NCBI RefSeq assembly: GCF_006345805.1
Contig: NW_021824837.1
Coordinates: forward strand, 1-64,000
DNA: 64,000 nucleotides
Direction: 5' to 3'
From: Octopus sinensis
Taxonomy: Eukaryota
Under the pieces are notes generated by a model. That model ran no database searches and was not told where the DNA came from. It saw only the letters and a list, made by a program, of their open reading frames with translations. Shown in pieces: positions 4,772 through 43,624 of this stretch. The first letter of the stretch is position 1. Each line of letters starts with the position of its first letter. A program made the translations under genes and the position numbers.

Positions 4772-4890
4772 CAATTTAGGAATGGCCTAAACAGGCCATT
4801 CGTCCACCAGAAAGAGCAGCCAGAACTCAAACCGCCAAGTAGTGCAATTCGGAAATAAGGTGAAAATTTAAAAACGTTTACCCTAATTCA

Positions 4891-4991
4891 TCTTTTATAC
4901 GATGCATCGTTTCGGTGTTTTTAATGATAGACCAGCTTAATTAAATTAAATTAAGCTAGTCTACCATAGGTCACACTTCATCAGTAAAAGA
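4891..4991 (-). ncRNA. Type I hammerhead ribozyme motif (copy 1)
   Basis: Minus strand: TCTTTTA-CTGATGA-long stem II-GAAA-CGATGCATCG-TA-TAAAAGA. Confidence 0.85.
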
Positions 4992-5365
4992 AACCTGGGA
5001 GAGACGAATATACACGAGGCGACTGTATCAATGCCTCGGGAATATCTGTCTTAAAATTTTCAAGACCAACGCATTCGCGCCAAACTTATCGGCAGCAAAT
5101 ATAAACTGCCGATTCAATCTCAGAATTAGTCAGAAAATTATCAATTAATCAATTTAGGGTAGCAAAAAATTCAGTAAAAATTTATCGCTACCAGCGGCCT
5201 AGTGGAAAAGAGAAAATAGTCAAAGACTAAATATATATAAATATAACAATTTAGGAATGGCCTAAACAGGCCATTCGTCCACCAGAAAGAGCAGCCAGAA
5301 CTCAAACCGCCAAGTAGTGCAATTCGGAAATAAGGTGAAAATTTAAAAACGTTTACCCTAATTCA

Positions 5366-5466
5366 TCTTTTATACGATGCATCGTTTCGGTGTTTTTAAT
5401 GATAGACCAGCTTAATTAAATTAAATTAAGCTAGTCTACCATAGGTCACACTTCATCAGTAAAAGA
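5366..5466 (-). ncRNA. Type I hammerhead ribozyme motif (copy 2)
   Basis: Same as copy 1, offset by 475 nt. Confidence 0.85.
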
Positions 5467-5705
5467 AACCTGGGAGAGACGAATATACACGAGGCGACTG
5501 TATCAATGCCTCGGGAATATCTGTCTTAAAATTTTCAAGACCAACGCATTCGCGCCAAACTTATTGACTAATTCTGAGATTGAATCGGCAGTTTATATTT
5601 GCTGCCGATAAGTTTGGCGCGAATGCGTTGGTCTTGAAAATTTTAAGACAGATATTCCCGAGGCATTGATACAGTCGCCTCGTGTATATTCGTCTCTCCC
5701 AGGTT

Positions 5706-5806
5706 TCTTTTACTGATGAAGTGTGACCAATGGTAGACTAGCTTAATTTAATTTAATTAAGCTGGTCTATCATTAAAAACACCGAAACGATGCATCGTAT
5801 AAAAGA
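5706..5806 (+). ncRNA. Type I hammerhead ribozyme motif (copy 3)
   Basis: Stem I TCTTTTA (5706-12)/TAAAAGA (5800-06), core CTGATGA 5713-19, GAAA 5784-87, palindromic stem III CGATGCATCG, GUA cleavage triplet ending 5799. Confidence 0.85.
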
Positions 5807-6050
5807 TGAATTAGGGTAACGTTTTTAAATTTTCACCTTATTTCCGAATTGCACTACTTGGCGTTTGAGTTCTGGCTGCTCTTTCTGGTGGACGAATGGC
5901 CTGTTTTAGGCCATTCCTAAATTGTTATATTTATATATTTAGTCTTTGACTATTTCTCTTTTCCACTAGGCCGCTGGTAGCGATAAATTTTTACTGAATT
6001 TTTTGCTACCCTAAATTGATTAATTGGAGATATATATATATATATATATA

Positions 6051-6270: not shown

Positions 6271-6471
6271 GCGCATGCACGCGTTATAAAACCGGAAGTG
6301 TAACTAGATTCTCTATGAATTTTGTTTCTATGACGGAAGAGCTATCAATTTTTAAGATGCTGAGACAATTGCTTGAGTCGAAGTTTGCGCATGGTCGCCG
6401 ATGCAATTCTTGTTAATTGTATGTGCTTCCAGTGGTAATTCTTATGGATTCTCACTTCTTCTCCTTCTTTG

Positions 6472-23590: not shown

Positions 23591-24667
23591 TGCAAGGTTT
23601 TTTTTAATAATTCAAATTAAAACCACCATGTGTATCTCATACAATAAGTATATACATCGTCGAAAGGCATTTCAGCAGTGCATTTACATTTTGTTTGATG
23701 AAGTTGTTGCAGTTGTGCTCACCGACATCTTATTAAGCTTAAATTCAATTTTTCCAAATTCACTCACACGCACACACACACATATATACACGCATATACA
23801 TATACATATACATATACATAAATACATATATATACATATAAATATACATACATACATATATATATATTTATATTTATTTATATTGTTATATTTCGGAATG
23901 GTCATATTGCCAGTTTAGCCAATATCTGTTTCAACACACGACTTCACATAAAAAATCTTGCACAACAAATATTTAAACGTATTTATTTATAAATATTTAT
24001 TTATTTATTTATTTATTTATATTTATATGTATGTATACATACAGAATTTGGGGTGGGTGAAACTGGATTTCGAAACACATGCAAGCTTCAAATATTATTT
24101 TCAAAATGCGTTTTAGCAGCTATTTCTCTTGTCTTGAAGACCCTAATACGATTTAAAATGTCTGTAAGAATGGTTTAATGCATGCGAATACAGGAGTTTA
24201 TATCTTTTGTGGTGAAAGTAGGAGAATGATACTTCTAGGTATCATTCTCCAAATTTCACCACGAATTTTTGTAAGCTCGGTCGAGCTAGTAAATAGATTT
24301 GTAGCTACAGGTAATTTTAAACCAGTCTGAAGGCGCATTACGTCTGCGATCAATGTAGCTACCCTGAAATGTATGCAGAACATATGTCAGCATTAAATTC
24401 AGCATATATTATTGCCTTGCGTACCTCGATCGACAATGATCTCTTGAGGGCTACGCCCAATGCAATTTAATTCAACAACACTACTTGCTGATAGTGTTTA
24501 CATAAATCTCGTTAATTCTGTTACAATTTTGGAGATGTACTTGCATAGCGAGTGACTTGATCTGGGATCGTGTGCTGGAACGAAAACAATTGCAGCGTGG
24601 AAGGTGTTTATAAGCCATTTAAGAAACACATAAAAACTGTTAAATTCACTTCAACATTTAAATTTAA

Positions 24668-24718
24668 TTTGTCAAAATATTTTCGTCGCTTTGAGACCGC
24701 AACCTGTTCACTGACAAA
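24668..24718 (-). ncRNA. Minimal hammerhead variant with G3:C8 core (GTGAACA)
   Basis: TTTGTCA-GTGAACA-G-GTTGC..GCGAC-GAAAATATTT-TGACAAA. Confidence 0.65.
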
Positions 24719-24755
24719 ACTTCGTGCTGCATAAAAAACAGATGCAGTACGAAGT

Positions 24756-24806
24756 TTTGTCAGTGAACAGGTCGCGGTCTCAAAGCGACGAAAATATTTT
24801 GACAAA
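24756..24806 (+). ncRNA. Minimal hammerhead variant with G3:C8 core (GTGAACA)
   Basis: Stem I TTTGTCA/TGACAAA, core GTGAACA 24763-69, stem II GTCGC/GCGAC, GAA, palindromic AATATT stem III. Confidence 0.7.
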
Positions 24807-24935
24807 TTAAATTTAAATGTTGAAGTGAATCGAACGGTTTTTGTAACAATTTGTTATTAAAAAAAAAAAATTTACATGCATTACATGGAATATTATTGCA
24901 CCTTTGCGCGACGCCTATTCAGCTATAGCACGCAA

Positions 24936-43285: not shown

Positions 43286-43530
43286 TACAGGACACCACAA
43301 ATAGACGTAGAACTCAACGAGAAACGAAAACATAAAAACAAGAGAACGGACTTTTTTTAACAACGAAAGAACAGAACACAGGACAAACAACACAAGGAAC
43401 ATTCCCCTTCATCAGCTGTCCCCGGTTCGACTCCATGCGTGTTTCGAAGGTAAGGACAGAACACGCTCACCGGACCGGTCCTTCCTGCGAGGGAATTAAA
43501 TAAAATTCCCTTGCAGGAAAGAAAAAAAGG
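43286..43530 (-). mobile_element. Short Penelope pLTR-like element carrying a rearranged hammerhead
   Basis: Island between AT microsatellites, 16-bp hairpin at 43482-43519, flanked by an 80-bp inverted duplication. Confidence 0.6.
43404..43466 (-). ncRNA. Non-circularly permuted (pseudoknotted) hammerhead ribozyme candidate
   Basis: Minus: GCGTG-TT-CTGTCC tta CCTTC-GAAA-CACGC (15 nt) GGACAG-CTGATGA-AGGGG. Stems I and III pair perfectly. Confidence 0.75.
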
Positions 43531-43624
43531 TGACATATGCATGTATATATACATGTAGATGTAGGTACGTACATATATGTATGTATGTATGCATATATTT
43601 TATTTATTACATTATATATATATA

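Follow-up and report, generated by a model that had tools for sequence, protein, structure and literature searches.

A 64,000-nucleotide (nt) window of the Octopus sinensis genome (assembly GCF_006345805.1, contig NW_021824837.1, positions 1 to 64,000) contains a permuted hammerhead ribozyme motif on its minus strand, between positions 43466 and 43404. The reading that we consider probable is that this motif is a type SGC hammerhead carried by a high-copy, non-coding repeat of 800 to 850 nt. This repeat is likely to be a retroelement that is non-autonomous and is copied by the reverse transcriptases of Penelope-like elements (PLEs), and the predicted role of the ribozyme is to cut some of its tandem transcripts to unit length. 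Judged from its sequence, the ribozyme is likely to be active in the lineage. For the window copy itself, the prediction leans only slightly toward activity.

Inspection of the window confirmed the three hammerhead blocks at the minus-strand positions given in the original prediction, together with the core nucleotides listed there. The 5' half of the S block (43466 to 43460), assigned by motif inspection and a tally of copies, comprises the 5' strand of stem III (43466 to 43461) and H17, a U at position 43460. The 3' strand of stem I follows (43459 to 43454) and may be 2 nt longer through G.U pairs. The G block (43449 to 43437) comprises the 3' strand of stem II (43449 to 43446), GAAA (43445 to 43442), and the 3' strand of stem III (43442 to 43437). 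The C block (43421 to 43404) comprises the 5' strand of stem I (43421 to 43416), CUGAUGA (43415 to 43409), and the 5' strand of stem II (43407 to 43404), with an extra, bulged A (43408) between the latter two. Stem III contains 6 bp when U16.1-A15.1 is counted, and stem II reads G-C, G.U, G.U, G-C. Cleavage is predicted at the bond 43460/43459. The distance from the cut to GAAA is 14 to 16 nt, about 4 to 6 nt of which are unpaired, which leaves stems I and II joined by a short linker. The three blocks are contained in a 63-nt segment.

A descriptor that demanded the core and stems of at least 5 (I), 4 (II), and 5 (III) bp in the order site, GAAA, CUGAUGA matched once in the window and in 0 of 500 dinucleotide shuffles (both strands). 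The motif is therefore real, beyond chance. No hammerhead family appeared among the best 150 of 216 Rfam matches at an E value of ≤1; this is expected, because the Rfam models have the canonical block order. The missing Rfam match would also suit a chance or decayed resemblance in a repeat like a short interspersed element (SINE), in which case any accumulation of 5' ends near the cut would come from TA microhomology only. We consider this explanation very improbable given the shuffling result, and the variation among copies described below bears on it as well.

The block order S, G, C does not follow the cyclic order C, G, S of canonical types I, II, and III, in agreement with the predicted non-circularly permuted, pseudoknotted hammerhead. 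Eckert et al. (2023; PMC10085705) name six block orders, and the order site, GAAA, CUGAnGA is their type SGC; five SGC examples cleaved, with tabulated rates of 0.007 to 0.19 per min. The comparison proposed with the prediction thus yielded a unique site and no listed Rfam hammerhead, while the topology proved to be already published. The accompanying statement that rearranged hammerheads have been reported in some eukaryotes was not borne out. According to Supplementary Note 1 of Eckert et al., the data derive from assembled metatranscriptomes; RefSeq 85 was also searched by these authors. The rows examined in the SGC alignments bear metatranscriptome or environmental identifiers, and the word "octopus" does not occur in the supplement. 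A 2026 paper (PMC13725137) still cites Eckert et al. for alternative permutations. Our literature search, which covered few subscription papers and part of the SGC alignments, gave no animal genome or retroelement for which a permuted hammerhead had been reported. The topology is thus known, and its setting in a genomic retroelement appears to be new.

The motif shares with type SGC (HRIMA-1 and SGC variants; PMC10085705) the S-G-C order with conserved core nucleotides, a short stem I/II linker, a frequent bulge after A9, closure of stem II by G10.1-C11.1, and covarying stems, here stems I and III. The closure of stem II is weak in the octopus motif. The published examples are 583 metatranscriptome sequences (RNA only for HRIMA-1); their stem II has 5 bp, most of them Watson-Crick, and a helix joining stems I and II is essential. 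In contrast, the octopus repeat is genomic DNA of a large eukaryote, its bulge is an A, its stem II has 4 bp with two G.U pairs, and its linker extends stem III by pairing with the 5' flank.

The stretch that carries the motif belongs to a large family with dispersed copies: 40 of 40 scored matches lie at 92 to 100%. The assembly searched comprises 2.72 Gb. Two family A words gave 123 and 424 exact copies (the latter a 21-mer; controls, 0), and a family B/C word gave 1,722 (control, 1), amounting to more than 2,100 exact-word copies in total. Family E, an older relative of families A to D that is also present in the window, gave at least 40 matches at 86 to 100%. Tandem copies, spaced 793 to 879 nt apart, defined units of 802 nt (family A) and 845 nt (family B) with a GC content of 0.37 to 0.39. 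No conserved open reading frame (ORF) was found in the repeat units, and the long ORFs of individual copies are not alike; an ORF of 246 to 283 amino acids (aa) in one family A unit was rejected as low-complexity sequence that is not kept across 12 tandem loci. Insertions, in or beside (TA)n, consist of copies truncated at the 5' end, in many cases with a full unit after them (partial tandems). An inverted truncated copy often abuts the 5' end of the insertion, and 3' ends cluster near unit positions 728 to 742 and 802.

The window holds a composite of this kind. The motif lies in a 5'-truncated family A copy (43534 to 43181, minus strand; approximately unit positions 385 to 741 of 802) that ends in (TA)n. 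Its 5' end is abutted by an inverted copy of its own 3' end (43535 to 43621, plus strand; 98.9% identical). Beyond a TA tract lies a family E copy (43832 to 43661, minus strand) without the S block, in which similarity begins at position +1 of the predicted cut.

Comparison of the copies revealed that the stems are kept while their sequences change, an outcome on which the prediction had been made to depend. Read-through copies provided 131 distinct motifs; 128 of them formed 7 or more of the 10 pairs and entered the tally. N7 was U in 73, A in 54, and G in 1; H17 was C in 67, U in 59, and A in 2. Pairs 1, 2, 4, and 5 of stem I and pairs 3, 4, and 5 of stem III alternated between C-G and U-A. 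Pair changes were then scored in 22 representatives of subfamilies A to D. Stem I was 100% paired with 4 of 5 pairs changed on both sides, and stem III was 96.4% paired with 3 of 5 changed, which gives 7 of 10 for the two stems and 7 of 14 for all stems. Overall, 96.1% of the cells were paired, compared to 85.6% after shuffling and 32 to 58% after sliding. Family E (19 distinct motifs from 20 fetched copies) added two-sided changes, to A-U at stem III pair 2 and to G-C at stem I pair 6, each in 17 of 19 copies. This maintenance of pairing, despite changes in 4 of 5 pairs of stem I and in four pairs of stem III, has largely refuted a chance resemblance, as far as sequence comparison goes.

Family E also settled the register of stem II, which can be read in three ways in families A to D. 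In the register with the bulged A, the commonest pair was carried by 19, 18, 17, and 18 of the 19 copies at the four successive positions. The slipped register would place A.C in 18 and G.G in all 19 copies. Compared with families A to D, the fourth pair changed from G-C to U.G and the third from G.U to G-C. The slipped and the unbulged registers were therefore ruled out, because only the bulged-A register pairs throughout; it holds in families A to E. A one-base bulge at the same place is common in the published SGC alignments (PMC10085705), and an AUA triplet, as present in family E, occurs in a natural hammerhead (PMC1636495).

Folding predictions and comparison of copies revealed an additional helix, termed IIIb. 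The 15-nt linker, described in the original prediction as a span from stem III to stem I, is mostly paired in this model: positions 43431 to 43422, the 3' arm of IIIb, pair with the 5' flank at 43478 to 43469 (both arms on the minus strand). IIIb is predicted to lengthen stem III by up to 10 bp past an internal loop. Among 25 copies it was 76% paired with 7 of 10 pairs changed on both sides, the latter count being inflated by several misaligned family B rows. In families B to E the internal loop reads AGUA opposite GAA (AGUA in 86 of 93 copies, compared to 3 of 103 in family A), which we take to resemble a bulged-G motif; the GA/GA loop of family A is presumably similar to a kink-turn. A further hairpin is predicted directly upstream of the ribozyme (43520 to 43481, minus strand), with a counterpart in family B.

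The 3' arm of IIIb abuts the 5' strand of stem I, and the helix stops 0 to 3 nt before it. This is sterically awkward in cis and, together with the existence of tandem copies and of PLE hammerheads cited in the retrozyme literature as acting as dimers (PMC7229834), would be compatible with action in trans, in which blocks from neighboring tandem units or from two RNAs form an ordinary three-way junction instead of an intramolecular double pseudoknot. We regard such action as quite improbable, as the three blocks are confined to so short a segment and short single constructs of published SGC ribozymes with this layout undergo co-transcriptional cleavage (PMC10085705).

The positions at which truncated copies end were examined relative to the predicted cut. 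Copies were picked through a word of the C block, in the order of the match list. Of the 424 family A matches, 70 loci gave 67 distinct copies, and of the 1,722 B/C matches, 81 loci gave 69 distinct copies, only the 5'-most unit of tandems being taken for the last 51 B/C loci. In family A, 13 of 61 copies at risk had 5' ends at +1 to +12, compared to 11 of 220 across five intervals upstream (Fisher P = 2.6 × 10⁻⁴); an earlier BLAST count was 14 of 67, before L087 was reassigned. Pooling with B/C gave 20 of 122, compared to 23 of 467 (P = 7 × 10⁻⁵). An AT-rich stretch 35 to 50 nt upstream of the site gathered few 5' ends, which also argues against TA microhomology as the sole cause. Stalling of reverse transcriptase (RT) on a structure at +1 to +12 appears unlikely, because the partners of those bases would already have been copied.

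As a possible source of the mobilizing enzyme, young ORFs of 775 to 781 aa with an RT and, at the C terminus, a GIY-YIG domain were found in the genome. The dependence of the repeat on PLEs is inferred from its PLE-type insertion anatomy. PLEs are known for partial tandems, inverted copies, a tail, and a (TA)n bias (Craig et al. 2021) and for internal initiation of reverse transcription at AT-rich targets (PMC11167929). The repeat resembles PLE pseudo-long terminal repeats (pLTRs) in that it forms partial tandems with abutting inverted copies truncated at the 5' end, has an optional 3' tail and a hammerhead, and lies at (TA)n or AT-rich targets (Craig et al. 2021; PMC11167929). It differs from them in having no RT or endonuclease ORF. 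Enrichment of family copies beside PLEs was considered and dismissed (5 of 30 loci, compared to 2 of 29 control loci; P = 0.42). At locus L112, a family B copy adjoins a PLE 3' end directly, without an intervening TA tract, and this fusion hints at template switching.

We propose the following order of events. The S and G blocks, transcribed first, would form a long hairpin of stem III and IIIb, with the 3' strands of stems I and II exposed in its loop. The C block, as the last to be synthesized, would pair with this loop and close two pseudoknots, but only during a brief co-transcriptional period before its own downstream hairpin forms; cleavage would therefore be partial. A PLE protein with RT and GIY-YIG domains would nick AT-rich DNA and begin copying at an internal site, unit position 728 to 742 or 802. 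The RT would stop near the cut 5' end, a TA at about +8 serving as the joint, or would continue through an uncut, circular, or re-joined template, giving partial tandems. Stem III and IIIb together would clamp both monomer ends, favoring circularization.

Several observations weigh against this proposal. The compensatory changes represent few independent events, the subfamilies being related; the 22 representatives were hand-picked, and some of the sample had been collected with anchors that fixed the C block or stem III pairs 1 to 3. No stem II pair changed on both sides in families A to D, and the window stem II is calculated at −2.9 kcal/mol, compared to −7.7 kcal/mol for the slipped register, which would pair G8 and A9. 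The predicted minimum fold (−55.2 kcal/mol; z = −3.6) buries the C block in a hairpin of its own, with its 3' arm at 43403 to 43381 (minus strand). This off-state helix stays 87% paired, but, unlike stem I, it has 0 of 5 pairs changed on both sides. A helix between the distal ends of stems I and II, essential in the published SGC-3 (PMC10085705), could form 3 to 4 bp, was 85% paired compared to 82% after shuffling, and competes with IIIb. For the 5' ends, the +1 to +12 interval was set after family A had been seen, so that B/C provides the fair test; the result there was borderline (7 of 61, compared to 12 of 247; P = 0.059), with a further 5 of 66 ends at +13 to +24. The peak lies on a TA at +8/+9 and not at +1, as a chance resemblance would also allow; it fits TA-microhomology joining near the true RNA end, and microhomology alone is also possible. 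The site is read through in 37 of 67 family A and 42 of 69 B/C copies, so templates must often be uncut, circular, or re-joined, states that are indistinguishable from DNA. No sequence common to the repeat units and the PLE loci was found in a sample of 20 long loci (from 150 scored of 5029 candidates, a sample that does not extend to Naiad-type elements), save for inserted copies in L176, and none of these 20 carried an SGC motif in its own pLTR. Finally, the hammerhead of the Anolis PLE PAc is dispensable for insertion in vitro (PMC11167929).

The off-state minimum, the stronger slipped stem II of families A to D, the prevalence of read-through, and the apparently protein-assisted Anolis hammerhead would all be accommodated by a hammerhead-shaped structure that is kept as an RT-binding or packaging signal, or as a protein-assisted ribozyme, and that rarely cleaves unaided, with retroposition mostly from uncut transcripts. 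We judge this explanation unlikely. N7 and H17 vary as in active hammerheads, family E loses the slipped register and keeps the active one, and 5' ends of family A are in excess just past the predicted cut.

The repeat was compared with non-LTR retrozymes (PMC7229834; Li et al. 2026, preprint 10.64898/2026.07.22.740005). Common features are non-coding, low-GC, head-to-tail units, dispersed as well as tandem, with one hammerhead per unit and coexisting PLEs. Non-LTR retrozymes have a type I hammerhead, units of about 170 to 400 nt, and demonstrated linear and circular RNAs; in contrast, the octopus repeat has an SGC hammerhead and longer, mostly partially tandem units (802 and 845 nt) and is described here from genomic DNA. 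It is outside the non-LTR retrozymes as defined and resembles, by its sequence, a type SGC hammerhead in a retrozyme. A topology so far found in anonymous environmental RNA would thereby move into a genome, with thousands of copies in at least five subfamilies of different age, which form a natural record of the upkeep and tuning of a non-circular permutation. The accumulation of 5' ends is a genomic footprint relevant to whether PLE-associated hammerheads cut their template in vivo. Searches with canonical descriptors can miss permuted hammerheads, including the searches behind Naiad elements, which are stated to have no hammerheads (Craig et al. 2021). A bolder view, which we hold as a tentative possibility that we do not favor, is that non-circularly permuted hammerheads are hidden, long-lived ribozymes of animal retroelements missed by canonical descriptors and are the missing Naiad ribozymes; the family would then be a retrozyme replicating via an 800- to 850-nt circle clamped by the extended stem III, its SGC wiring having evolved apart from viroid-like RNAs.

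The idea that the motif belongs to a pLTR of some autonomous element, a PLE or a Naiad, was rejected: 50 PLE loci gave two SGC matches (L102 and L112), both of them separate family copies beside a PLE end, and no element with an N-terminal endonuclease was recognized among these loci. The PLE loci examined carry canonical type I-like hammerheads. A young PLE (L161; 781 aa) has 99%-identical terminal repeats with a canonical type I hammerhead in each (380 to 450 and 6315 to 6385), stem II being closed by A-U. In the 3' repeats of other PLEs (L167, 5260 to 5320; L171, 5266 to 5325; L112; L166; L102), a minimal type I-like hammerhead has U and A in place of C3 and G8, possibly a compensated core variant; in L102, C3 differs again.

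In a search for unrelated SGC families, the descriptor pattern gave 109 matches, compared to 95 in the control, and the true matches were relatives of this repeat. Candidates in L211, L216, L228, L236, L240 to L250, and L257 to L259 were discarded, as they have no stem II partner. At L245 (1434) and L246 (1491), a repeat with GAAAC-loop-GUC is followed 20 nt on by CUGAAGA; neither a stem I nor a stem II partner was seen. Family B-like sequence was covered by assembled contigs of four public runs with four organism labels, in which no ends are visible; no RNA run carrying the element was among the runs listed. At locus L040, a family A and a family B copy lie back to back in opposite orientation inside one TA tract. 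Families A to D retain, at their 3' tail, a GTAAG word resembling a 5' splice site (L047, approximately 1822 and 2630; the tail of L187; L102; L176), after which about 200 nt of pyrimidines come in the next unit; this arrangement may be a relic of a PLE 5' intron.

Two further repeats were observed elsewhere in the window. Positions 4864 to 5833 contain three copies (two direct and one inverted, 97%) of an unrelated piece of about 270 nt with an internal palindrome, in a PLE-like arrangement; no hammerhead was found in this piece. Positions 24646 to 24828 contain a long, near-perfect inverted repeat that resembles a miniature inverted-repeat transposable element and matches a plant microRNA model below the gathering score.
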